From a virus: a DNA stretch of 64,000 nt. The notes beneath the pieces were generated by a model, which saw only the letters and a program-made list of their open reading frames with translations, did no database searches and was not told the origin of the DNA. The stretch lies in UHGV virus genome UHGV-2031204; one strand, written 5' to 3'. Positions 6,308 to 44,995 of the stretch are shown in pieces (position 1 is the stretch's first letter; the number at the start of each line of letters is the position of its first letter). A program made the position numbers and the translations under genes.

Positions 6308-9300
6308 TTAATCGCGAATGATTACCGCCTGCACTTTATTGTTGGTGTCGATAAACGACATTACGCGCTCCTTGTTAAGATAAGGAGGTATCGGTAACGC
6401 AGCGTAATCCGCCAGGTTGTTATTAAATTCAGTTGCCACTAACGCATTAAGCGTTTCGGGGTCTGAACTGACACCGGTCAAATCCATAACGCGCACACGA
6501 TTTAATGAGGAATAGTTGCTAATATAGTCTAACAACGTACCATAGACTTTATTCGCGGTTGCGCTATCTGCCGTAGAACGGATGTTGGCACGAACCTCAT
6601 CCTCATAAAGTCCCCCTAAACCGTAGTAAATAGGGGTATACGGATCGTTAACGATAGGTGCGATATTGAACCCTGTTAAACGGTCAGTTAGAGGGATTTT
6701 CTGCGTAGCTCCCCCTGCTGCCGTGCAGCTTACGTATTTATCTGTCGCAGATAAAAACACCACGATGGTATACGTAGTGCCCGCTAAGGTCAATGTTGCG
6801 TTAAACGTTATTGCGTTATTTGCAGCACGGGTGTGGGTAAACGTTACGTCAGGTTGTAACGTATTCCACGGCGCAGGCGTAACACGCTTCGTTGGTGTGA
6901 AACCTAACACTACCGATTTCCCGCTACCGAAGTTCAAACCGAACCCTGCGTAACAATATTCACCGTTGCTGTCAGTTAAACGATAACCACGAGTGATAAG
7001 TAACGACAACCGCATAAACTCGCCGTCGGTGTTTTTCCAACAACCTAAAACAGTTTCTAACACCGTGCCAGTTTTTGCGTTGCTTTCTGTTTCCCAACTT
7101 ACCCGCATTCCTGCGTTCTTAAAAGCTGGGAACGTGTTGTGGATAAACCCGTGTAGGTTATCGCTTACTCCTTTCGCGTCAAAAATCCACTTGGATGCAA
7201 GCTGGTCGTATTTCACCCCGTCTAAAGCTTTATACTGCCCCCCGGCAACATAACGCCAATCTGCTTCACCGCGTACTACTGCCTGGAGTCCAGAAGCCCA
7301 GCAAGGCGCGCCTACCGTTAAGTTAGCTAACCCAAGCGCTGCACGTGACGCGGTGCGTTGAATGTGTGCGTTGTCATCGGCCTTATGATCTTTCAGTTCA
7401 CGGAAATCACCCAACCGTGTGACATTACGCATCTCCGTAACGAACACCTCAGAAATGTCGTTAACACCAATCAACCCTACACGCGTCATGGTATCCGTTT
7501 CAGCCTGACTGTAGCTGTCGTGGACAATATACTTCGCTTTGTTGTCAACAATATCAACAAAAATCCCTGCGTAGATTTCTGTATTCAATTTCGGAAAACG
7601 TTCACTGACGTTAATCGTCATCAACGGAACGTCGTATGTTTCACCACCGATAAAATACGTTGAAGCTGGAAGCGTGACCAGAATTTTGTCTTTGACCGTA
7701 AGGTCTATTAAGTCGTTACCAGACTCACCAAAACGTATAATGTCAAGACGTGCCTCCGAGTCAACACCGCTGACAGCGCGCTCCAATTTTTCAATCTGAG
7801 AAGTCTGCGCCATTACCACACTCCCATCGAGTGCTAAAGTCGCATCATCCACATCCAGACCAAATTTAATCAGACCACGTTTCGCGGTGGTTGCGTTTCC
7901 AGTACCAAAAGCGGTAAACGGGTGTTGGTGAACTTTAGGCGAGTATTTATCTAACTCCGCACGTTGTGCTGTAGAAATCGGTAAATCGACATCGGGCGTA
8001 TTCGCAACATTACCTAAACCAAAGGTAATCTTATCGATAGTAACCGAGCTGGTAAGTTGCATGTCGTTAATGTACGATTTAACTGCAACTAACTTACCGG
8101 TGAACTCCGCATCGAGTTTTTCAATCAGTGCTGGCGTTGCTGCAAGGTTTTCAGCGGTACCGAACTCATCGGTCAACTGCCAAGCTGCCAGAGTTGTTGT
8201 ATCGGTCGCGGTAGGAAGAATAAAGGTCGCTACGAACGGCGAGGCTTTTATCCCGCTACCGGTGATCGTAACCGTTGTTGTCGAGTTTGCGTAGAATAAA
8301 CCTGTACCACCTGCGGTATTGCCTGGCAGATACGGGGCTACGGTGGTGGGGTCTAAGAGTTTTTTACCACGCCACAACAATCCTCGGTCATCGGGGTATA
8401 GCACAAGCTGGTTAGTACCTGCTTGGAACGTTACGGGGTTGTTACCCACGTTAACATCAGTTGAACCTTGGCCAATAAACTTAATGGATTTCGGATCAAC
8501 AACAAACTGAGCGCCTAAACGTGTCTCGTCAACAACATCCGGTGCTTTCTTAATGGTAACCGTGTTACCTTTGTTTTGCGAACTAATGGTAACGGCGTCG
8601 GCAACATTATTGATCAGCGATTTAAAGTGGTGCTGATTCTCTAATGCTTCTAACGCAGCGTCCATGTTATTGAAGTTGATCCGACCGCTATACGTTTTAC
8701 TGTTTACGGTAATAACGACGTCAAACACATTCCCTGTACGCTTCAGTTGAAAACGTAGCGTAAAATCCCCATCCGGTATTGCCGGGTTAGGAGCTTGTGA
8801 AATATACCGAACTGCCGGTACCGGACTACCGTAACCGTGCAACGCCAGTTCGATAGTAAGAGTACCGGACCAGACTTCACCGGTAATCTCTACGTACTTA
8901 CCGGAGTTACTACCAGGATTTTCGTAGAAACGTAAACCAACCCTACCGACCGCTTCATTACCAGACGCTGTTTTACGTCCAGTAACAATAAAGTCAATAT
9001 CTTGCAGGTTGGCAGGCACCGCATTAAAGTTAGCACTGAAACCGCTTTTCGCTCCTGTATAACGAAGCGCACCGTGATATCTGTGACCACTACTAACATA
9101 GCTTTCGCTAAAATAAGGACTCACGTATTTCGACATCGAGACCGGATCAACTTCCGTCGTGAACGAAGTAAAACCCGGAAGTGTGGTAATCGTGCCGTTA
9201 ACGTTCTTGCTCGCCGATTCACGAAGCAGTTTTTTCTGTGCGGTTAACGTTGCTTGTGTTGGGTACTTAGCATTAACGTAATCCGTTAACTGCTGTTTCG

Positions 9301-13393: not shown

Positions 13394-13421
13394 CGGGACG
13401 TTCCTTAGATCGGAATTGATT

Positions 13422-13447
13422 TCAGATATATTTTACTTAAGTGAATA
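13422..13447 (+). promoter_or_regulatory. candidate phage promoter motif (copy 1 of CAGATATAT[T/A]TTACTTAAGTGA)
   Basis: Near-identical to motif at 17706-17731; followed by a 9-bp-stem hairpin (13448-13473); sits in a 320-bp ORF-free region upstream of the first plus-block gene. Confidence 0.4.
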
Positions 13448-15062: not shown

Positions 15063-16214
15063 ATGCGAAATATTATTTCTAAACCAGGACATGTCAAAAT
15101 CCTAAAAGAACTGATGGACAGATGCTATAATCGGACTTGGTCACTACCAAGCTTAACCATCGAGTCTTCATTACAACGTGAGTTGTTTGGTTATAACTTG
15201 GGCTGTTGTGTACTTACTGAATACAATGAGATTATCGCGCCTGTCGATGTCTGTACTTACGATGAAGAAATTGAAGGTTACAAGTTCGCGGTTTACACAA
15301 ATTGTGGACTAAATTACCGTAAACTCGTTGTTAGGGAAAAGAGTAGCAGCCGGAAGATTATGTTTAAGGTCTTCCCAAGTGGTAAAGTCAGTAATTTATG
15401 TTTTCAGCTTGAGAAAGTGCCCTTTCACGGTGCGGACATTTTAACTAAACCGGAGCTCGCGTTATTAAGCGGGTTAATTGGCTTTGAAGCAAAAACCATC
15501 AAAGTTGAGCAGGAACTTACACGAAACGATTTCGGGTCAACTTGGTACGAAAGTTTCTTCCGCTACGAAATGTTAAGTGATAAAGCTATCAAACTCACTT
15601 ACCGTTCTACCGACGACATCGTTTACCACATTTTAATTAGCGGCGAACCCCACCAGATTATTGAAGTCGAAGGAGAAAAATCCGTGCGTACCTTAAAAGA
15701 TGAATTAACTGATTTTGTTAACAAAATTGATAACGTGGGTATCAGTGAATTATTATTCCCGATTCAACATCCAGAGTTGCTTGACGAGAAATGTGAAAAC
15801 ATGATTATGGCGGTGCATTTACTTCCTGACCATCTTGCTATCTACCGTACACTTTCTAAGAACCAACTTAAAGTGTGGTGTCTGTTAAAAGGTCTTTTAA
15901 CAGAGGCGGGGTGGTCGTGTAGTGTAGATGTTAACTGTGAAGGAGTTGCGTTCTTCATCACAATAGGCAATCGTAGTTTTTCTGTCGATTTACCTACTCG
16001 CAGCTATTACGATTTCTTCCCGACCGCAGAAGGACGTACTGAAAAAGAACCCGCATTACTGCTCAGTGCTGAGGAGTCCAATGCGTTAATGGCGAAACTG
16101 AAGGCGAAAGACGAGAAGCTGGATGCTTTACATCTACCTATAATCGGGAAAGACTACGGTTGGGCTGACGTGCAAAAATACGGCAGTCAGCTGTTGTTTG
16201 TTGCTGACCTCTAA
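15063..16214 (+). CDS. hypothetical protein, tandem paralog family member 3 (383 aa)
   Basis: Track ORF with AAAGGAGAG RBS; C-terminal YDFFPTAEG...SNALMAKL...YGWADVQKYGSQLLFVA. Confidence 0.65.
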   Translation: MRNIISKPGHVKILKELMDRCYNRTWSLPSLTIESSLQRELFGYNLGCCVLTEYNEIIAPVDVCTYDEEIEGYKFAVYTNCGLNYRKLVVREKSSSRKIMFKVFPSGKVSNLCFQLEKVPFHGADILTKPELALLSGLIGFEAKTIKVEQELTRNDFGSTWYESFFRYEMLSDKAIKLTYRSTDDIVYHILISGEPHQIIEVEGEKSVRTLKDELTDFVNKIDNVGISELLFPIQHPELLDEKCENMIMAVHLLPDHLAIYRTLSKNQLKVWCLLKGLLTEAGWSCSVDVNCEGVAFFITIGNRSFSVDLPTRSYYDFFPTAEGRTEKEPALLLSAEESNALMAKLKAKDEKLDALHLPIIGKDYGWADVQKYGSQLLFVADL

Positions 16215-16281: not shown

Positions 16282-17055
16282 ATGAAAGTCCATTTAGACG
16301 ACATCTTTAAAACCGAACCGTATATGATCGAAGGCCCGCTATCATCACTACTATTTGCCGATAGATTAGATCGTACGCTGCAATTACAATCGGTCGAAAC
16401 TGCACCCGTTGACGATGTAGAGCGTTACGAGCGCATCAACTATACGCGTGGTGAGTATCGTCGCTATAAGCCAAATTCACTAAGCATCAAGCTTTGGAAT
16501 GTGAGCACAGGTAAAGTATTAACTTATCGCGCTGTTGGTAGTTATTACATTCAACAAGCCAAAGAGTGGTTAGAAAAAGTTAAAGAACTGAACTTCGATC
16601 TACTGAGCAAAAAACTGCGCGATCATAACGCCAGTTTGCCGATACGTAATTATTTCTCCACGATTGAAAATAGTCGTTGTTTCGTTTCACGTGAAACCAC
16701 GATATTACCTGGGGATGATGTTCAGACAACACTAAAAGATGTGGTTGTGAAGAAAATCTTTCATGAATCTGAACACGTTGGATTTCGTATCTATTTAACG
16801 CATAAGAGACCATTTACCGTGATTCACGTTGTTACCGCACCCGAAGGCTCAGCGATTATTCGTGAACTTCCTGATGCTCGAGACCGTTGCCCTAATGAGC
16901 CGCTTTATTTAATGTCAGGAACAAAATCAACCGCGTTGATGTCCCGTTACAGCATGTTAGATGTTGTTGACGCTGCTATGAAACTAGGTTGGAAAGAAGT
17001 GCAGCAACATGGTAAACAATTGCTGTTTATTGCCGATGTAAAACTTAATCAATAG
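16282..17055 (+). CDS. hypothetical protein, tandem paralog family member 4 (257 aa)
   Basis: Track ORF; C-terminal STALMSRY...KLGWKEVQQHGKQLLFIA; N-terminal MKVHLDDIF. Confidence 0.65.
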   Translation: MKVHLDDIFKTEPYMIEGPLSSLLFADRLDRTLQLQSVETAPVDDVERYERINYTRGEYRRYKPNSLSIKLWNVSTGKVLTYRAVGSYYIQQAKEWLEKVKELNFDLLSKKLRDHNASLPIRNYFSTIENSRCFVSRETTILPGDDVQTTLKDVVVKKIFHESEHVGFRIYLTHKRPFTVIHVVTAPEGSAIIRELPDARDRCPNEPLYLMSGTKSTALMSRYSMLDVVDAAMKLGWKEVQQHGKQLLFIADVKLNQ

Positions 17056-17650: not shown

Positions 17651-17683
17651 GGTGGGGGTAAACCCCCACCTTTTATTTTTTTG
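17651..17683 (+). terminator. intrinsic terminator
   Basis: Stem GGTGGGGG/CCCCCACC followed by TTTTATTTTTTTG. Confidence 0.7.
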
Positions 17684-17705
17684 TTCGTTAATATTAAAAA
17701 TAATT

Positions 17706-17731
17706 TCAGATATATATTACTTAAGTGAGAG
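17706..17731 (+). promoter_or_regulatory. candidate phage promoter motif (copy 2; contains TATATTAC)
   Basis: CAGATATATATTACTTAAGTGAGAG matches 13422-13447; directly after a terminator and ~45 bp upstream of 17777; overlaps hairpin TTAAGTGAG...CTCACTTAA. Confidence 0.45.
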
Positions 17732-17776: not shown

Positions 17777-18148
17777 ATGAAAAACGAATTATTCAAAGAC
17801 CCGTTTGTTGTATTAATGATCGTTACTCGCGCTGCCACTAACCCAGAAAACCTGAAACGTTTACTTACTAACGAAGCATACCTTATCGAACAGCGTGACG
17901 CGCAGTTAGCCAAACCACACGCTGAAGGCCAGGCGAAAGACCTTATCTCTATTTTCCGTAACGAAGAATGGCGTAAAAACAACGAGCTGTCCGACAACCT
18001 GACGGTTGCAATTGCAAAACTCTTGACACTGTTCAATCTTGACAAAGACATTAACCAAAGCCTTTCTACAGAAGAGCGTCTGGAAATGATAAGAGGTATC
18101 GGAGATAGTTATACACAGATTAAAGCATTACCCAACACAGTTATTTAA
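17777..18148 (+). CDS. hypothetical protein (123 aa)
   Basis: Track ORF with AGGAGAA RBS. Confidence 0.55.
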   Translation: MKNELFKDPFVVLMIVTRAATNPENLKRLLTNEAYLIEQRDAQLAKPHAEGQAKDLISIFRNEEWRKNNELSDNLTVAIAKLLTLFNLDKDINQSLSTEERLEMIRGIGDSYTQIKALPNTVI

Positions 18149-18194
18149 TTTCATAATTTGTGGGAACTTCCCCATAACCCGAAGGAGCATTTCA

Positions 18195-18656
18195 ATGAAA
18201 ACCTTTATCACTTTCTTAATAACTATTTTAACTTTCGGCCTCAATACTGCACACGCCGCTATCAACAGCTGGGAACAAATACAAAACCCTGGCCAGGCAG
18301 TTTACGAAATTGAAGACACCGCCGGAAACGGACTGTCTATCAACTGTGACACTGAAACTGCGAATCGCAAATTTTACGGTCGCATGGTTTGGTATTACGG
18401 GGAACCCGTAGGTGCAACTAACGCTGAAGATAACACGATGGATATTGTCGTAAACGGCAAGACCTATAACATCCCTACCGTGGACGGTAGTGACAAAGCA
18501 GAACACGCTTGGGTTGCTTTCGTTAATGCTATCGGTAATGCCAAAACTTTCAGTGTGAGTATCAATGGTAACGATGCCGCTAACTTTACCGTAGAAGGCG
18601 AACGTCTGTCTGAAACTTTCTTCCAGAACTGTGGACACACCCGTCCTAACAAATAA
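18195..18656 (+). CDS. small secreted protein 1 (153 aa, predicted signal peptide)
   Basis: AAGGAG RBS; N-terminus MKTFITFLITILTFGLNTAHA is a classic Sec signal with AxA site; mature part has 2 Cys. Confidence 0.6.
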   Translation: MKTFITFLITILTFGLNTAHAAINSWEQIQNPGQAVYEIEDTAGNGLSINCDTETANRKFYGRMVWYYGEPVGATNAEDNTMDIVVNGKTYNIPTVDGSDKAEHAWVAFVNAIGNAKTFSVSINGNDAANFTVEGERLSETFFQNCGHTRPNK

Positions 18657-18684
18657 GTATTAATCTTTTTTAGAGTGCGTGAAA

Positions 18685-19071
18685 ATGAATATCAGAACTA
18701 TACTTTATACTATCATTATTTTCTGTGCGGTCGGAATTACTGGCACTTATGCTTTCGGTGATTCAGATGTCCGTTATTACGAACCGGCTCCTGACTCACC
18801 GATTATCAACCCGGATGAGACGCCTACGTTAATGCGCAGTTTCGGTAAACTGCAAGTTTATCGTTTAGTGCGTGGTGAAACCTGTACGGGTTTACTCATT
18901 GCTGACACCCGTGCACAAGTCTACCAACGTCTAACCGATATCGCCTGCGAACAACCAAAAGTAATGTCAGTTAGTATCCATCCGCTATCAGTTGGTAACT
19001 ATACCGCTGTGGACTTCTTTCACAACGCCGAATTAATCGGACGCGTTACCTTAAATCGTCCTGCCGAATAA
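18685..19071 (+). CDS. small secreted protein 2 (~128 aa, predicted signal peptide)
   Basis: Track ORF from GTG 18679; ATG at 18685; hydrophobic N-terminus IRTILYTIIIFCAVGITGTYA; Cys in mature part. Confidence 0.5.
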   Translation: MNIRTILYTIIIFCAVGITGTYAFGDSDVRYYEPAPDSPIINPDETPTLMRSFGKLQVYRLVRGETCTGLLIADTRAQVYQRLTDIACEQPKVMSVSIHPLSVGNYTAVDFFHNAELIGRVTLNRPAE

Positions 19072-19089
19072 TCTAAAGGAGTAGTTACA

Positions 19090-19575
19090 ATGAAACGTTT
19101 ACATACACTGATGTTCTTTCTGGTTTTCTTGTTTATCGGTGCCACGCCAACTGTAGATGCGGCCTCCGTAGACGAATTGCTTACCTGCGATGGAAACGCT
19201 TGGGAAGGTCAGCCAAATGCGTGCCCAAACATCAACGACTTGTACGATACCGATAAGTCGTTTAAAGCCGTTGTTGATAAAACACTAGACCCCGTAGGGC
19301 TGGATGGTATGTTCGGCTCTAAAGGTTACATGGATGGCCCTGGCGGTAACATGTATCCGGTAAACATCAACAACAAAATCTGGATTGAAAGCGGCGGTTG
19401 TAAAGCTAACGCTTGTGGTTGGGAATACATCGTAACGCTATACAACCCACACACTAAGAAACTCGTCGGCTATTACTACAACATCGACCCCGGTTACCTG
19501 ATTTGGTTCGGTGATATCGGTGTTGCCGAATTCGCTTACCTGGTTAAGAAATACGTAGAACAATCTAAATACTAA
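19090..19575 (+). CDS. small secreted protein 3 (161 aa, Cys-rich, predicted signal peptide)
   Basis: AAGGAG RBS; MKRLHTLMFFLVFLFIGATPTVDA signal; several Cys in mature part. Confidence 0.6.
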   Translation: MKRLHTLMFFLVFLFIGATPTVDAASVDELLTCDGNAWEGQPNACPNINDLYDTDKSFKAVVDKTLDPVGLDGMFGSKGYMDGPGGNMYPVNINNKIWIESGGCKANACGWEYIVTLYNPHTKKLVGYYYNIDPGYLIWFGDIGVAEFAYLVKKYVEQSKY

Positions 19576-19586
19576 GGACTTTTATC

Positions 19587-19997
19587 ATGAAAACTATCAT
19601 TAATACTCTTCTCATTGCAATGGCTGTTCTGTTCTCTGTCAACGCTACAGCAAAAACAATACAGTTGCCAGACAATATTAAGTACGTCAATAGCACCGAT
19701 GATTTCTATTGTACGGAAATTGACGGCTTGTACTGTCAGGCAAAGAGCCTGTTTAAATACAAAGGTAGCAGATACGTATTCATCGTTGAGCAAGGTGGTG
19801 CCTGGTGCTACGACAGCCCAATGTCCGTACTCAACCTCGAAACGTGGAAGGCTCAGCGTCTCGAATACAACGACAAACGTCTGTGCTCTGGTAATAACAA
19901 ACCATTCTTCGAAGTCGTAGATGGTGTGCCAATGGTAGGGATATTAGACACTTCGGAAAAACCTATCGTTGTAGCTATGGATAAACTTAAAATTTAA
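19587..19997 (+). CDS. small secreted protein 4 (136 aa, predicted signal peptide)
   Basis: MKTIINTLLIAMAVLFSVNATA signal; Cys pairs in mature part. Confidence 0.55.
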   Translation: MKTIINTLLIAMAVLFSVNATAKTIQLPDNIKYVNSTDDFYCTEIDGLYCQAKSLFKYKGSRYVFIVEQGGAWCYDSPMSVLNLETWKAQRLEYNDKRLCSGNNKPFFEVVDGVPMVGILDTSEKPIVVAMDKLKI

Positions 19998-20007
19998 GGA
20001 GTAACTC

Positions 20008-20397
20008 ATGCGTCTCGTCTGCGTTTTAGCATTCTTCTTCTCCCTGAGTGTAGCAGCATCTACCCAAGTTAACGATTTACTGCTAACCCCAAACAACAAT
20101 ACCGATTATCAGTACAATCCTCCGGGGTTTGAAGTTTGCGAAGTCGGTGAAACAATCTGCCAAGAAGTCGGCGCAGACGGGCGCTATATTCTGGTAAAAG
20201 CTGACGGTGGCACAATGTGTCCCGCAGGTTATTACTTTCTGCTCGATTCCGTCGCAAGAGAGGTTCTTCCTATCACCACGAAAACGTGCGACCCTACCGT
20301 TGTCTTAACTCTCGCTAAAAGTAAATCTCGCGACCGTTATCTGATCGTTATCGAAGAACGGGGCAAGATGGCGGGTGCTATTGAATTAGATCATTGA
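20008..20397 (+). CDS. small secreted protein 5 (129 aa, predicted signal peptide)
   Basis: AAGGAG RBS; MRLVCVLAFFFSLSVAAS signal; 5 Cys in mature part. Confidence 0.55.
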   Translation: MRLVCVLAFFFSLSVAASTQVNDLLLTPNNNTDYQYNPPGFEVCEVGETICQEVGADGRYILVKADGGTMCPAGYYFLLDSVAREVLPITTKTCDPTVVLTLAKSKSRDRYLIVIEERGKMAGAIELDH

Positions 20398-20407
20398 GTG
20401 TAGTCTT

Positions 20408-20436
20408 GACCCCGGTACGTCCGGGGTCCTTTTTAC
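20408..20436 (+). terminator. intrinsic terminator
   Basis: Stem GACCCCGG/CCGGGGTC followed by CTTTTTAC. Confidence 0.6.
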
Positions 20437-21605: not shown

Positions 21606-21610
21606 CGTTT

Positions 21611-21653
21611 GGGAGAACCTTCGGGTTCTCCCTTTCTTTATTTTTTTCTTTTT
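21611..21653 (+). terminator. intrinsic terminator
   Basis: Stem GGGAGAACC/GGTTCTCCC followed by long T-tract. Confidence 0.7.
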
Positions 21654-21683
21654 ACACCACACTCCGTCTTTATGGAGGTGGGT

Positions 21684-24188
21684 ATGCTAAAAGTTGAACG
21701 CATTATACTCAAAGGTTTTACGGGGATGGGATTACATGAAATTGAAACTTTCGATTTCACTATCCAGTCTCCAACAACAATTATCCTAGGTGGGAACGGT
21801 TGCGGGAAAACCAGTCTACTGTCTGTATTCTTACCCTTAGCACCGGCTAAAACTGAATTCAGAGACGGCGGTTCTTACACGAACTACTGTTTAGTTGGCG
21901 ATCAACGCTATCGTTTCAAAGTTGCCCGTAAAGGCAACTCTTTGGTTTGCGATATTGAGAACCTGACCACGGGGACAAAGATCGTCGAACAAGGCAATGC
22001 GAAAGTCTACAACTCCCGTGTTGAAGAAATCACGGGTATTACGAAAGAGATTAAAGAATTATTAAATGGTGAGGTGTTGTTAACTGATGCGGGAACCGAA
22101 CTACGTCGCAAGTGGTTTTACCGTTTAAGTACCTCTGACCTCACTTACGCGTTAGGGTTTTATCAACGTTTACGTAAAAACCTTACTGCCTTAAATGGGG
22201 GGATTGAAATCACCAGCCGTAAGATCGCCGAATTACGGACGCGTGTTATTGAGAACGAGGAAGAACGTCAGCAATTAGCGACGAGATTAAAAGGTTTGGA
22301 ATCGGATTTACGTGAACTGAACCGAGAAATCGAACAGTTGCCAGGATTAAATCGCGGCGTCACCATCGAAACAATCCAAGCGTCATTAAACAGCTTGGGT
22401 CCAACCATCGACGCAATATTACAACATCGTGGTGGTCTGCCTACTGATGAACAGATACAGGTCGCACGACAAAACGAGGCGACCGCCCGCGAAGCCGTCG
22501 TGTCTACTGAAACAGAGGTATCGATGTTGAATAAAGACTTGTCGCTATTGATGGATGAGTCGACACGACAAGACTACCTGATGCGGAATCACGAAGGTCT
22601 CAAGAATACACTGGCACGTTTACGTGAGTTACTTACCAAATGGGACACCGAGCATCTCTTTCCGGGTTTATTTAACGACAACGTCAATTTAGACCAACTT
22701 CGTGCGGCTACCGATGCGCGTGTCTGGGGGCAACGGTTAGGAACAACACTGGACGCAATTCATTCAACCGAAAAACTCAATGTTTTGGAAGAACGGCTTC
22801 TGGTGATGGATCAAAAAACCGCAGGGTTGCGGGATAGACTCCAGCGAGTGGAGAACGTTTTACAGAATTTAAATCACGAACGTAATCACTACTTAGAAAC
22901 AGCGGAAGTGGATTGCCCGCAGTGTCGGTTTAAGTTCCGTCCTGGTGTTACGCGTTCTTTACCTGAACTTGAGTCTTCGATTCGCGGACAACAACAGCAG
23001 CGCACGGAACTGCAAACGCAGTTAGAGACCTTATTACGCGATCGTGTTGAATTAGAATCTGATGTAACTTATATGCGGCAGGTTCGTGAGATTGTACTGA
23101 CGTATTCAAAGGACCCGGTATTGAGCATGTTCTTTAAGCGTTTGCAAGAACGTAACGTTTTCACAGAATCACGCGAGCAGTTCGGGAGTCTATGCGCAGC
23201 GTTTGACAGCGAGTTGTACTCTGCTATTGAGTACCATGAAACCCGTCAACGGTTAGTGAAGGCGGAAAAAGAATGGCAGGATGCCGTGGCGGCCGTTGGT
23301 AACGTCGATGGTGCTTTACAACAAAAAATCGCTTTCCAACAGTCACGATTAGGTAAAGCCACAGAGATGCTCTCAATGCGTCGTAGAGAGCACGAACTGG
23401 CTAACACGACACTTACCTATCTGGTGAATGTTAAACGTGCTGTAGATGATTTCAGTGCGTTATTCGAACGGTTAGAGAGTGATGTTAAGGTTACGTTGAC
23501 AAATACAGTCGTCGAGGAACTCTTACGTACACGAGAAGGGAAGCTGGATGCTTTTACAACCGCACGCGAACGTTATCGTCAAATGGAAAATGAATTGAAC
23601 CAGCTCAACAGTTTGGAACGCGAACTTGCTGACTTACAAGCCCAGCAGTTCAATAACAAACTGATGATTCAAGCCTTCTCGCCAGAAAAGGGTGTACTTA
23701 GAAAGTATTTTTACAACGCTATCGTTAGAATCACAGAGTTAATGACGCGTTATATCGAACAGGTCTGGACGTACCCCATGCGTGTTATGCCTTGTGATCT
23801 CACTGACGGCGATTTGGATTATACTTTTCCTGTCCAGCTAAAAACGCATCCTGAGCCTGTTCCTGACGTGCGTAAAGGGTCAAAGGCGCAGCGTGCGATA
23901 TTTAATCTGATGTTCAGACTGACTGCGTACAAAGCGCTGAAGTTGCATCAGTTTCCGTTGCTTTTGGACGAGCCTTCGGAGGGTATGGATGAGGAGCACC
24001 GTAACAACCTGGTCGGCTTTATTAAAACGTTAGCAAACTCAGGAGATTTTTCACAACTGTTGGTAGTCTCCCACGAAGCTGAGGTTCATTCTAAACTTAA
24101 TGAAGCATCGTACTGTGTCATCGAACCGGAAGGGGTGACATTACCTGCGGTGTATAACGAAGGAGTAAAAATTGTTTATGCAAACTGA
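21684..24188 (+). CDS. Rad50/SbcC-like ATPase (~834 aa from ATG 21684)
   Basis: N-terminal Walker A GGNGCGKTS; long coiled-coil-type middle; central CPQC zinc-hook-like motif; C-terminal Walker B LLLDEP and H-loop VVSHEA; track ORF starts at 21609 but GGAGGTGG RBS precedes ATG 21684. Confidence 0.7.
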   Translation: MLKVERIILKGFTGMGLHEIETFDFTIQSPTTIILGGNGCGKTSLLSVFLPLAPAKTEFRDGGSYTNYCLVGDQRYRFKVARKGNSLVCDIENLTTGTKIVEQGNAKVYNSRVEEITGITKEIKELLNGEVLLTDAGTELRRKWFYRLSTSDLTYALGFYQRLRKNLTALNGGIEITSRKIAELRTRVIENEEERQQLATRLKGLESDLRELNREIEQLPGLNRGVTIETIQASLNSLGPTIDAILQHRGGLPTDEQIQVARQNEATAREAVVSTETEVSMLNKDLSLLMDESTRQDYLMRNHEGLKNTLARLRELLTKWDTEHLFPGLFNDNVNLDQLRAATDARVWGQRLGTTLDAIHSTEKLNVLEERLLVMDQKTAGLRDRLQRVENVLQNLNHERNHYLETAEVDCPQCRFKFRPGVTRSLPELESSIRGQQQQRTELQTQLETLLRDRVELESDVTYMRQVREIVLTYSKDPVLSMFFKRLQERNVFTESREQFGSLCAAFDSELYSAIEYHETRQRLVKAEKEWQDAVAAVGNVDGALQQKIAFQQSRLGKATEMLSMRRREHELANTTLTYLVNVKRAVDDFSALFERLESDVKVTLTNTVVEELLRTREGKLDAFTTARERYRQMENELNQLNSLERELADLQAQQFNNKLMIQAFSPEKGVLRKYFYNAIVRITELMTRYIEQVWTYPMRVMPCDLTDGDLDYTFPVQLKTHPEPVPDVRKGSKAQRAIFNLMFRLTAYKALKLHQFPLLLDEPSEGMDEEHRNNLVGFIKTLANSGDFSQLLVVSHEAEVHSKLNEASYCVIEPEGVTLPAVYNEGVKIVYAN

Positions 24189-24357
24189 TTGGTTCCGTCG
24201 TTTTATGGACGCGGCGGGGTTTGGTTTCATGTCCATTCTAGCGGTTCTTTATGTCATGTTTTGCGTGGTGATGATTTTATGGGTAGTTTCATCTTATCTG
24301 ATTAAACTATCGTGGGGTTCAATTTGGCGTCAACGCGAATGCGAATGGCGGAATTAG
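24178..24357 (+). CDS. small membrane protein (~60 aa)
   Basis: Track ORF 24172..24357 overlapping SbcC stop; strongly hydrophobic core FGFMSILAVLYVMFCVVMILWVVSSYLI. Confidence 0.4.
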   Translation: MQTDWFRRFMDAAGFGFMSILAVLYVMFCVVMILWVVSSYLIKLSWGSIWRQRECEWRN

Positions 24358-26422: not shown

Positions 26423-27148
26423 ATGTATAAATCCAACTGGAGAAACAAAATGTTTCGTATCTTCTTTCTTTTACTGGTAACACTTTTCGCGTTTAACGCA
26501 CAGGCGTCAACGTCAACGCCACATTCTAAACATCAGCGTGAGTTTACACAAATCCAACATCGGTTCGAAAAAGTCAGTCCGTTAATTGTGGAAATCTCAC
26601 GAAAGCAAGGCGTTGATCCTAAGCTGATGATTACGCTGATTTATCGTGAATCGCGTTTTGATCCCAAGGCTTACAACAAAAGCTCACGAGCACACAGCCT
26701 GGTACAGATGCTTCCAAGTACCAAGCGTAATCTGCTAAGGCTTTATGGAAAAGAATTAGGTCTTAGTCAGAACGCCGATTTGTATAATCCGCGTAATGCT
26801 GTTTTGCTGGCTGCCGCGTATGTTAAACATCTTGAAAAGGGGTTAACCAAACGACTCAAACGCAAGCCCACCATGGCTGAAGTTGCGTTAGCTTACCACT
26901 GGGGTGAAAGTGGCGCTCACACGCGAATCAAAAGCAAATCTCGAGCAGCACAACGAGAAATGGCAGGCTTTATGAAAGACGCCTCGTTCTATAGCGCGAA
27001 AATCGATGTGCCTGTTGTTGTGGGCTCGGCCCCACGTCAGCTTGCGTTTGCGAAGAAAACACCACGTCAGATTCAATTGGCGGAAGTTAGTAAAATTTGG
27101 GATACGATAAACACGAGTTTTCCAATCAATAGAGGAGTTACCCTTTGA
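26423..27148 (+). CDS. secreted lytic transglycosylase, GH23/SLT domain (start 26423 or 26450)
   Basis: Signal peptide MFRIFFLLLVTLFAFNAQA; SLT motifs YRESRFDP, SLVQMLPST, AAAYVKHL. Confidence 0.7.
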   Translation: MYKSNWRNKMFRIFFLLLVTLFAFNAQASTSTPHSKHQREFTQIQHRFEKVSPLIVEISRKQGVDPKLMITLIYRESRFDPKAYNKSSRAHSLVQMLPSTKRNLLRLYGKELGLSQNADLYNPRNAVLLAAAYVKHLEKGLTKRLKRKPTMAEVALAYHWGESGAHTRIKSKSRAAQREMAGFMKDASFYSAKIDVPVVVGSAPRQLAFAKKTPRQIQLAEVSKIWDTINTSFPINRGVTL

Positions 27149-32371: not shown

Positions 32372-32830
32372 TTGATGAAAATGCTATTATTCATCATGGT
32401 AGTGTTCGTGGGGTTGGTGAGTAATAGCTACGGTGACGAAGTTAAACGTCCAGCTTATAGACCACTGGAACTTCCTCCTGAACCGCCAATAATGGTGAAT
32501 TGGAAAATTGACAAAAATGCAATGCGTGAGTATGTTGCAGATGTCAACACCTATGCTTATTACGTTTATGTCTACACTCGAAATTTAAACCAGCAAGCCG
32601 TTAAACGTGGCTGGAGTCCACCGATGTTGGCTCCGCTTTGTGAACGCTATGAGTTACCGAAATTACACGTTGTGCCTGAGCGCATGTCTCTTGATGAGGG
32701 TTCTTTAACAGCCCAAGAGATTAGCCGTGATTTATCGCGTAAACTCAATAATTTGTTATGGAATTACCGTTCCGACCGTCAGGCACTGCTCGATTCGTAT
32801 AACCAATACTTGACATCGTGTTTGTACTGA
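32372..32830 (+). CDS. secreted protein (152 aa, predicted signal peptide)
   Basis: MMKMLLFIMVVFVGLVSNSYG signal; start overlaps upstream stop (TGATG). Confidence 0.55.
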   Translation: MMKMLLFIMVVFVGLVSNSYGDEVKRPAYRPLELPPEPPIMVNWKIDKNAMREYVADVNTYAYYVYVYTRNLNQQAVKRGWSPPMLAPLCERYELPKLHVVPERMSLDEGSLTAQEISRDLSRKLNNLLWNYRSDRQALLDSYNQYLTSCLY

Positions 32831-44924: not shown

Positions 44925-44956
44925 TCTTACTACCTCAATTTCAAAAAGAAGTCAGA

Positions 44957-44966
44957 CAGATATTAT
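44957..44966 (+). promoter_or_regulatory. AGATATTATC promoter-like motif (copy 3)
   Basis: In divergent intergenic region, 39 bp upstream of 44996. Confidence 0.35.
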
Positions 44967-44995
44967 CTACGTGAGACATTCTTTAGGAGTGAATT

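Follow-up and report, generated by a model that had tools for sequence, protein, structure and literature searches.

The subject of this study is a block of five small genes, named O1 to O5, that lie side by side on the plus strand at 18195-20397 of a 64,000-nucleotide stretch (the window) of the UHGV virus genome UHGV-2031204. A sequence-only reading of this DNA had described five adjacent genes coding for 129-161 amino acids (aa), and all five were recovered as open reading frames (ORFs) at these positions. O1 (18195-18656) encodes a protein of 153 aa that, judged by its sequence, belongs to the YfjT family (PF27224). O2 (18679-19071) encodes 130 aa when read from a GTG and is the local member of a family called here family A (phrog_9424). 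O3 (19090-19575, 161 aa) appears to be a remote homologue of Ivy (inhibitor of vertebrate lysozyme), whereas O4 (19587-19997, 136 aa, predicted all-beta) and O5 (20008-20397, 129 aa) are four-cysteine proteins of families C (phrog_8968) and D (phrog_5248), respectively. All five products are predicted to be secreted. The start of O2 is probably the ATG at 18685, giving a protein of 128 aa, since this is the codon that gene callers picked on near-identical contigs. The genes are separated by gaps of 10-22 nt, and ribosome-binding sites of the AGGAG type precede O1, O3, O4 and O5; the site before O2 is weak, so the earlier statement that all five sites are good holds for four of them. Judged from its proteins, the window is part of an uncultivated or undeposited phage of the SPN3US/Asesino group, within the phiKZ-related jumbo phages that encode an RNA polymerase (RNAP).

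Export signals, cysteines and the transcription unit

The N-termini of O1 to O5 have the three-part (n-h-c) layout of a Sec signal peptide, as had been claimed for all of them: an n-region with lysine or arginine, an uncharged h-region of 13-16 residues and a small-x-small cleavage site, placed at AHA/A, TYA/F, VDA/A, ATA/K and VAA/S (slash, predicted cut) for O1 to O5 in turn. The same layout is kept in 22 of the 22 orthologues examined, although the signal sequences themselves diverge. A typical membrane anchor would be longer than h-regions of 13-16 residues. No lipobox, twin-arginine motif or second hydrophobic segment was found in the five proteins. By a simple heuristic of our own, 8 of the 73 genes in the window look signal-peptide-like and five of the eight form the O1-O5 run; the chance of such a five-gene run is about 2.6e-4, a figure to be read with the caution that O4 and O5 are paralogous and thus not independent. 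Two further proteins of the window have hydrophobic N-termini. One is encoded at 32372-32830 (+; 152 aa, phrog_8165, two cysteines) and begins with LMKMLLFIMVVFVGLVSNSYG/DE when read from the listed TTG start, an internal methionine lying two codons in. The other is a membrane-type peptide of 61 aa (24172-24357, +) that overlaps the end of an SbcC-like gene.

The predicted mature parts are small (12-15 kDa; 132 aa in the case of O1) and acidic, with isoelectric points of 4.6-5.4 (4.6 for O1). They contain 2, 2, 4, 4 and 4 cysteines from O1 to O5, both cysteines being conserved in O1 and in O2, and the counts are likewise even in all 22 orthologues. The range of two to five cysteines given earlier is right at its lower end; the count of five included a cysteine inside a signal peptide. 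Cysteine makes up 2.67% of the mature parts compared with 1.22% of 24 other window proteins. We infer from these sequence features, and consider the inference a strong one, that O1 to O5 are exported and cleaved.

A different view of the same proteins is that they are not soluble in the periplasm at all but are signal-anchored in the inner membrane, or are low-abundance virion or assembly factors, their clustering being the product of tandem duplication. The signal peptides were scored with our own heuristic plus conservation and not with a trained predictor of the SignalP type, so that cleavage was called without such a tool; the paralogy of O4, O5 and a third family (B, described below) means that the run arose in part by duplication; and virion mass spectrometry can miss small proteins. 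These points are set against short h-regions (13-16 residues) and good -3/-1 sites, both of which are kept across 22 orthologues, against the finding that O1, O2 and O3 come from unrelated families with only the export signal in common, and against the conserved even cysteine counts, which fit an oxidising compartment. The SPN3US orthologues also bear on the question (gp180 for O2, which is gp201 in Asesino, gp182 for O4 and gp183 for O5). The whole set gp180-183 is missing from the list of 86 virion proteins identified by mass spectrometry in purified virions of SPN3US, a list that reaches down to a 7-kDa protein (PMC5694885, Suppl. Table 1). We take O1 to O5 not to be parts of the virion, and the placement of the block in a non-structural region is supported. 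One refuting condition attached to the first reading, detection of the proteins in virions by mass spectrometry, is thereby answered from the SPN3US orthologues. We therefore regard a membrane-anchored or virion-associated set of proteins as very improbable.

The block lies in what looks like a transcription unit of its own. A strong intrinsic terminator at 17651-17670 (+), with an 8-bp stem (7 GC) followed by TTTTATTTTT, closes the upstream unit and forms the left boundary. It is followed at 17704-17727 (+) by an element, TTTCAGATATATATTACTTAAGTG, that resembles an early promoter and is probably of the phiKZ-type jumbo-phage class. The 24-nt consensus used, TTTCARRYAKATATTAYYWAAGTG, was assembled from the table of N1M2, OBP, 201phi2-1 and phiKZ promoters in PMC7058600. 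The element matches it without a mismatch, the chance expectation in the window being 0.00. Two other copies, for which none are expected by chance either, lie on the plus strand at 13420-13443 (1 mismatch) and 44950-44973 (3 mismatches), and each of the three copies seems to stand at the beginning of an early unit of the window. The element also occurs, with 0-3 mismatches, a short distance ahead of the orthologous block in SPN3US, Asesino, pEa_SNUABM_29, STsAS, Huxley and the metagenomic relatives L011-L013. A scan for sigma-70 promoters gave no more sites than shuffled sequences did, and none on the plus strand. On the right, a second strong intrinsic terminator at 20408-20428 (+), GACCCCGG-tacgt-CCGGGGTC followed by CTTTTT, closes the operon.

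The first gene of the unit (17777-18148, +) encodes a protein of 123 aa without a signal peptide (phrog_27024). It was found in L059 and is missing from L061, two loci of the window lineage. According to a review (PMC7598289), AT-rich motifs of this kind, found bioinformatically, have turned out to be early promoters in every profiled RNAP-encoding jumbo phage, where the virion RNAP that is injected recognises them. Because of the consensus-matching promoter, the flanking terminators and what PMC7598289 reports of such motifs, 17777-20397, with the 123-aa cytoplasmic protein and O1 to O5, would form one early operon.

O3, the Ivy family and the companion proteins

The first clue to the nature of O3 was the resemblance of its segment GGCKANACGW to the CKPHDCG loop of Ivy. 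To compare the families as profiles, 13 O3-family sequences were aligned by HHalign with 19 diverse Ivy sequences taken from genomes of diverse Proteobacteria. The two match with a probability of 97.1% and an E-value of 5.1e-11 over 90 columns, with the disulphide loops superposed, whereas families A to D used as controls reached less than 1%. A weaker Ivy profile of two sequences still matched the O3 family with E 1.8e-4. The Pfam family Ivy (PF08816) came up below threshold in 9 of the 13 members (best E 0.0077) and was the sole family to do so apart from one stray match, and the only NCBIfam model that matched O3 is NF007443 ("Ivy family C-type lysozyme inhibitor"). In the loop of O3, C104-KANA-C109, both cysteines, the lysine and the glycine that follows are conserved and aligned with the invariant CKPHDC of Ivy, the disulphide-closed inhibitory loop. 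The loops of O3 relatives read CKAHAC, CKSNAC, CKANTC or CKSDAC, and some homologues in Escherichia coli islands keep the histidine (CKAHAC). The AlphaFold2 (AF2) model of O3 is alpha/beta and agrees with the Ivy fold, an antiparallel sheet flanked by helices. The predicted signal peptide of O3, with the site VDA/A, is conserved in its family.

Taken together, the profile comparisons indicate that O3 is a genuine but remote relative of Ivy. It is classed as a divergent Ivy-like variant, not as an Ivy orthologue, because it falls below the curated thresholds and is without the canonical loop. Compared with Ivy itself (YkfE of E. coli, Ivyp1/2 of P. aeruginosa; PF08816; structures 1GPQ, 1XS0 and 1UUZ), O3 has about 17% identity and an extra N-terminal cysteine pair, and its gene is found in a jumbo phage and in CP4-like islands where that of Ivy is chromosomal and in the Rcs regulon. 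Since CKANAC differs from the anti-C-type-lysozyme loop CKPHDC, O3 probably does not target vertebrate lysozyme; a peptidoglycan hydrolase from a bacterium or a phage is likelier. Other searches with O3 gave little: the profile of its family against the Protein Data Bank (PDB) returned a chance mannanase match only, its model found no match at E <= 0.001 among the viral structures of BFVD, and tblastn against GenBank phages found none. When canonical E. coli Ivy was used in tblastn against GenBank phages, the sole match was a gene annotated as hypothetical in Escherichia phage PHB10 (MK524177.1, 14594-14932; 40% identity, 88% coverage).

O4 and O5 match phrog_8968 (E 3e-33) and phrog_5248 (E 5e-31), and by BLASTP they match each other only marginally (E 0.009). 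At the profile level the picture is different. With the mature parts alone, HHalign joined family B to C at 96.6% (E 6e-10), B to D at 92% (E 5e-7) and C to D at 85% (E 6e-6), and four cysteines in the pattern F-x-C ... C ... C-P ... C are aligned across the three families. O4 and O5 are thus, by profile, distant paralogues, and the earlier view that the five proteins bear no similarity to each other is right for pairwise comparison and wrong for this pair at greater depth. The superfamily is small, with 30 clusters at 50% identity among 1.84 billion proteins, and the members inspected have about 130-165 residues and, in all cases, a signal peptide and the cysteine pattern. The AF2 model of O4 is all-beta, with a predicted local distance difference test score (pLDDT) of 70. 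Structure modelling with fold search, a check proposed with the first reading, agreed with the Ivy fold in the case of O3 and gave no informative match for O4.

A relation of O4 and O5 to YfjS (PF20494) was considered and not accepted as established homology: the match between families B, C and D and YfjS of E. coli K-12 fell from 83% to 5% (E 0.0076) once the signal peptides had been removed. None of 23 members of these families matches PF20494, the YfjS/YafY lipoprotein domain, and O4 and O5 have no lipobox. Sequence-profile searches of the PDB with family A and with families B, C and D found nothing.

For O1, a precomputed Pfam match to PF27224:YfjT exists on homologues of 75-97% identity, and the assignment was made through these homologues and the founding member. 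BLASTP of O1 with YfjT of E. coli K-12, a gene of the CP4-57 prophage, gave E 2e-15 at 25% identity. The cysteine pair and W5/Y16 are invariant and several aromatic residues are conserved. O1 is on this evidence of sequence a member of the YfjT family. No match to O1 was found by tblastn among GenBank phages, and a literature search found no functional study of YfjT. Positions 40-74 of the O1/YfjT alignment, which include the strand (L/I)(S/T)I(N/S)C(D/T/S)(T/G), have weak PDB matches (E 0.004-0.9) to the first cysteine strand of antibody lambda light-chain V domains. The matches are short, cover the ITISCTG strand only and have E-values of at least 0.004, and a relation to light chains was set aside as motif coincidence; at most they may hint at an Ig-like sandwich.

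O2 has no relative in Pfam, NCBIfam or the PDB, and none was detected outside the SPN3US-group phages. Family A is unrelated at the profile level to families B, C and D and to Ivy. A PHROG cross-match of O2 to phrog_5248 (E 0.002) was discounted as probably an effect of the signal peptide. For the five proteins as a whole, scans of Pfam and NCBIfam found nothing above threshold and the PHROG matches are all of "unknown function".

Conservation, turnover and sharing with E. coli islands

At the nucleotide level the region had no megablast match among GenBank phages, and relatives were seen at the protein level only; near-identical contigs of 145-224 kb are present in public assemblies and in IMG/VR. 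Upstream of the block, large minus-strand ORFs code for SPN3US-type virion proteins. Downstream, an SbcC/SMC-like gene (21609-24188, +) codes for a protein that shares 69% identity with its counterpart in Erwinia phage Asesino and 57% with the one in Salmonella phage SPN3US. Its mechanically called ORF begins at a TTG within the upstream terminator; the true start is probably an ATG near 21672-21684, and gene callers on relatives give 834-836 aa. Two adjacent genes further upstream of the block, at 15063-16214 and 16282-17055 (+; 383 and 257 aa), share a C-terminal motif (...GW.(D/E)VQ..G.QLLF(V/I)AD) and look like paralogues.

A run of periplasm-targeted proteins had been thought unusual for a non-structural phage region. 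It is not peculiar to this genome: the secreted run is conserved across the whole SPN3US/Asesino/Machina group, where the cassette is always followed by SbcC and two conserved hypothetical genes ahead of it, and no member lacks a signal peptide. The composition varies. SPN3US (gp180-183), Asesino (gp201-204) and pEa_SNUABM_29 have the order A-B-C-D and Huxley has A-C-D. In STsAS, A-B-C are annotated and an unannotated D-family ORF lies in the gap. The window lineage (L059, L061) has the YfjT-like O1, A (O2), the Ivy-like O3 in place of B, then C (O4) and D (O5). The relative L011 has the same set and a second YfjT-like gene, whereas L012 has two YfjT-like genes, A, a single gene of 150 aa that replaces O3 and O4, and D.

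This 150-aa gene (6427-6879 of a 223-kb contig from the Salmonella assembly GCA_008966875.1) begins with an O3-like signal peptide (MKRLHALMF...). Its mature part is unlike that of O3 and has an F-P-C...C motif as in families B and C, which suggests that recombination took place at the signal-peptide boundary or close to it. When close relatives are compared, identity varies along the block in a mosaic fashion, and turnover of the cassette together with this mosaicism reads, at the level of sequence comparison, as the signature of an arms race. A literature search found nothing on SPN3US gp180-183 and no paper that describes these genes.

CP4-type integrative islands of E. coli chromosomes (loci L003-L007, L015 and L016) commonly contain homologues of O3, with 59-66% identity. 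These homologues lie directly downstream of genes for a dynamin-like GTPase, YjcZ and a patatin, and upstream of a DUF932-antirestriction-RadC-CbtA/CbeA series. Some annotations make the island homologue longer, at 223-227 aa, by adding about 65 residues to its N-terminus. In some islands an O4 homologue (79% identity) comes next after that of O3, at the same short spacing as in the phage, and the pair is colinear with 19090-19997 of the window at 72.4% nucleotide identity over 920 bp. The GC content of the island copies is 41-47% between flanks of 54-57% (41-43% between flanks of 54-56% for the O3-O4 module), and that of the phage window is 44.9%. The phage-like GC content, the nucleotide identity and the otherwise jumbo-phage distribution of the O4 family suggest that O3-O4 moved from such a jumbo phage into the islands. 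CP4-57, with yfjT (PF27224) and yfjS (PF20494), is a comparable case in that CP4-type islands likewise carry adjacent genes for small exported proteins.

Possible roles in the periplasm

The earlier suggestion that the block has envelope-directed functions gains a concrete footing from the Ivy homology of O3, and the early-type promoter fits exclusion or takeover; its assumption that the proteins are all unrelated did not survive the profile comparisons. Ivy and MliC inhibit lysozyme in the periplasm by placing a beta-hairpin loop in its active site, and the Spackle protein of phage T4 is an early, periplasmic, disulphide-bonded protein with a signal peptide that inhibits the gp5 tail lysozyme and so brings about superinfection exclusion (PMC7677548). 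Spackle (gp61.3), as an early phage gene whose periplasmic product inhibits a peptidoglycan hydrolase, is our working analogy.

On this basis we favour, tentatively and at slightly less than even confidence, a cassette that is early, directed to the periplasm and subject to gene turnover, and that neutralises wall-cutting enzymes in a Spackle-like block to superinfection and lysis from without. Early after infection, five small acidic proteins would be sent through Sec to the host periplasm, where one or two disulphides would form in each of them and where they would act as binders or inhibitors of envelope enzymes and structures. The altered loop of O3 would block a muramidase or lytic transglycosylase, the wall-cutting enzymes of a superinfecting phage would be neutralised, and superinfection and lysis from without would be prevented. 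O1, O2, O4 and O5 would bring in additional specificities towards the envelope, and the cassette would evolve as its genes are duplicated, replaced or exchanged with CP4-type islands of E. coli. Early expression, activity as inhibitors, the enzyme targeted and exclusion as a phenotype are what we infer here.

The likeness to Spackle is one of logic. Spackle is a helical bundle of 75 residues that binds beside the cleft, whereas O3 is alpha/beta and Ivy-like and O4 and O5 are all-beta; no PHROG or Pfam match to Spackle was found among O1 to O5, and the models of O3 and O4 are not helical bundles. The operon is thus similar to Spackle and Imm of T4 in being early and directed to the periplasm, and unrelated to them. 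The proteins are of the same general type as the inhibitors PliC/MliC, PliI and PliG, which are small, beta-rich and periplasmic, have a signal peptide or lipoprotein signal and place a loop in the lysozyme active site.

Several observations weigh against a Spackle-like cassette. O3 itself has no Pfam match at E <= 10, and its match to NF007443 scores 18.6 bits (E 0.0013) where the cut-off is 180. Its loop has Ala-Asn-Ala for the Pro-His-Asp of Ivy and so is without the key histidine, which Abergel et al. (2007) are reported to have placed in the lysozyme active site. The AF2 models are of moderate confidence (pLDDT 65 and 70), with low confidence in the loop itself, and the fold search with O4 returned generic beta-propeller fragments only. 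O3 is restricted to the window lineage, SPN3US and Asesino having a family-B protein in its slot. The core families A, B, C and D offer no functional lead, and an inhibitor or binder role would extend to them by analogy only. The signal-peptide calls are those of a heuristic and not of SignalP, and the early timing is read from a promoter motif.

The phage's own lytic enzyme offers another possible target. A gene outside the operon, at 26423-27148 (+), encodes a putative endolysin of 241 aa, an EmtA/MltC-like lytic transglycosylase with the catalytic motif YRES (NCBIfam EmtA/MltC, E 8e-9; phrog_4067 transglycosylase, E 1e-47). Its true start is likely M10 at 26450, giving the Sec-type N-terminus MFRIFFLLLVTLFAFNAQA/S, and the orthologous genes of Asesino, SPN3US-like and other jumbo phages bear the annotation "putative endolysin". 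A Sec-exported endolysin in a phage of Gram-negative bacteria would need restraint, and a periplasmic inhibitor might have this enzyme as its target or partner.

O1 to O5 could accordingly serve lysis timing, regulating this exported endolysin or the holin from the periplasm; O3 would keep the enzyme inactive up to lysis, or the proteins would behave like the RI antiholin of T4. The signal peptide of the endolysin implies active enzyme at the wall before lysis unless it is restrained. In T4, rI codes for an early-expressed periplasmic protein, and the RI antiholin senses superinfection. Ivy-type proteins, moreover, can inhibit lytic transglycosylases in vitro, and a passage of PMC10139938, citing Clarke et al., has both Ivy and MliC acting on these enzymes in vitro and weakly in E. 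coli. This model is opposed by the phages SPN3US, Asesino and Huxley, which keep an endolysin with a signal peptide and yet are without O3, and by the position of the block, which is an early-type unit of its own and lies 6 kb away from the gene for the endolysin. Homologues of O3 and O4 are present in the E. coli islands, yet the island loci retrieved list no endolysin of this kind, and no resemblance to RI, RIII or spanins turned up in the searches of Pfam, PHROG and NCBIfam. A role in lysis timing seems unlikely to us, though restraint of the endolysin is a near competitor of the Spackle-like reading.

The same passage of PMC10139938 describes a proposed physiological role of Ivy and MliC in restraining endogenous lytic transglycosylases, which is compatible with a further model in which the block stabilises or remodels the envelope of the host while the long cycle of a jumbo phage runs. 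Its proteins would inhibit host autolysins or periplasmic stress and defence factors, or mask receptors in the manner of T5 Llp or Cor, and the enzymes of incoming phages would not be their targets. The five mature proteins are small and acidic, four of them without a known partner, and the island homologues stand beside cargo of anti-phage type (the dynamin-like GTPase, YjcZ and patatin upstream, antirestriction downstream), as such a model would have it. O1 to O5 have, however, no lipobox or outer-membrane signal as in Llp and Cor, and nothing ties them to any receptor or defence protein. We give stabilisation or remodelling of the host envelope a small chance, as we do lysis timing.

A bolder extension of the Spackle-like cassette is a "periplasmic armoury", a set of fast-evolving inhibitors, each of which would block a different wall hydrolase or entry device of competing phages, in which O3 would be the first Ivy-type protein retargeted to a phage or bacterial lytic transglycosylase and from which islands would have captured O3-O4 as an anti-phage defence acting before DNA entry. 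We consider it distinctly doubtful. If true, it would describe a class of defence that acts before DNA entry and is derived from the superinfection-exclusion genes of phages.

Phage periplasmic exclusion and inhibitor proteins are a kind of system already known; what was unexpected is the Ivy-like member and the link to E. coli islands. Very little is known of phiKZ/SPN3US-type phages outside the cytoplasm, the focus so far having been on the phage nucleus and injected proteins, and the locus described here is a defined, conserved and apparently early operon devoted to the periplasm, with one testable biochemical hypothesis, that of an Ivy-type inhibitor whose loop has been redesigned. For therapy with jumbo phages it may be relevant to exclusion between members of a cocktail. 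Should O3 prove to inhibit a lytic transglycosylase of phage or host origin, it would be a second, structurally unrelated case of the Spackle strategy, the homologues in CP4 islands, including YfjT, would become candidates for anti-phage functions at the envelope, and the Ivy family would extend from defence against animal lysozymes to conflict between phages and between phage and host.

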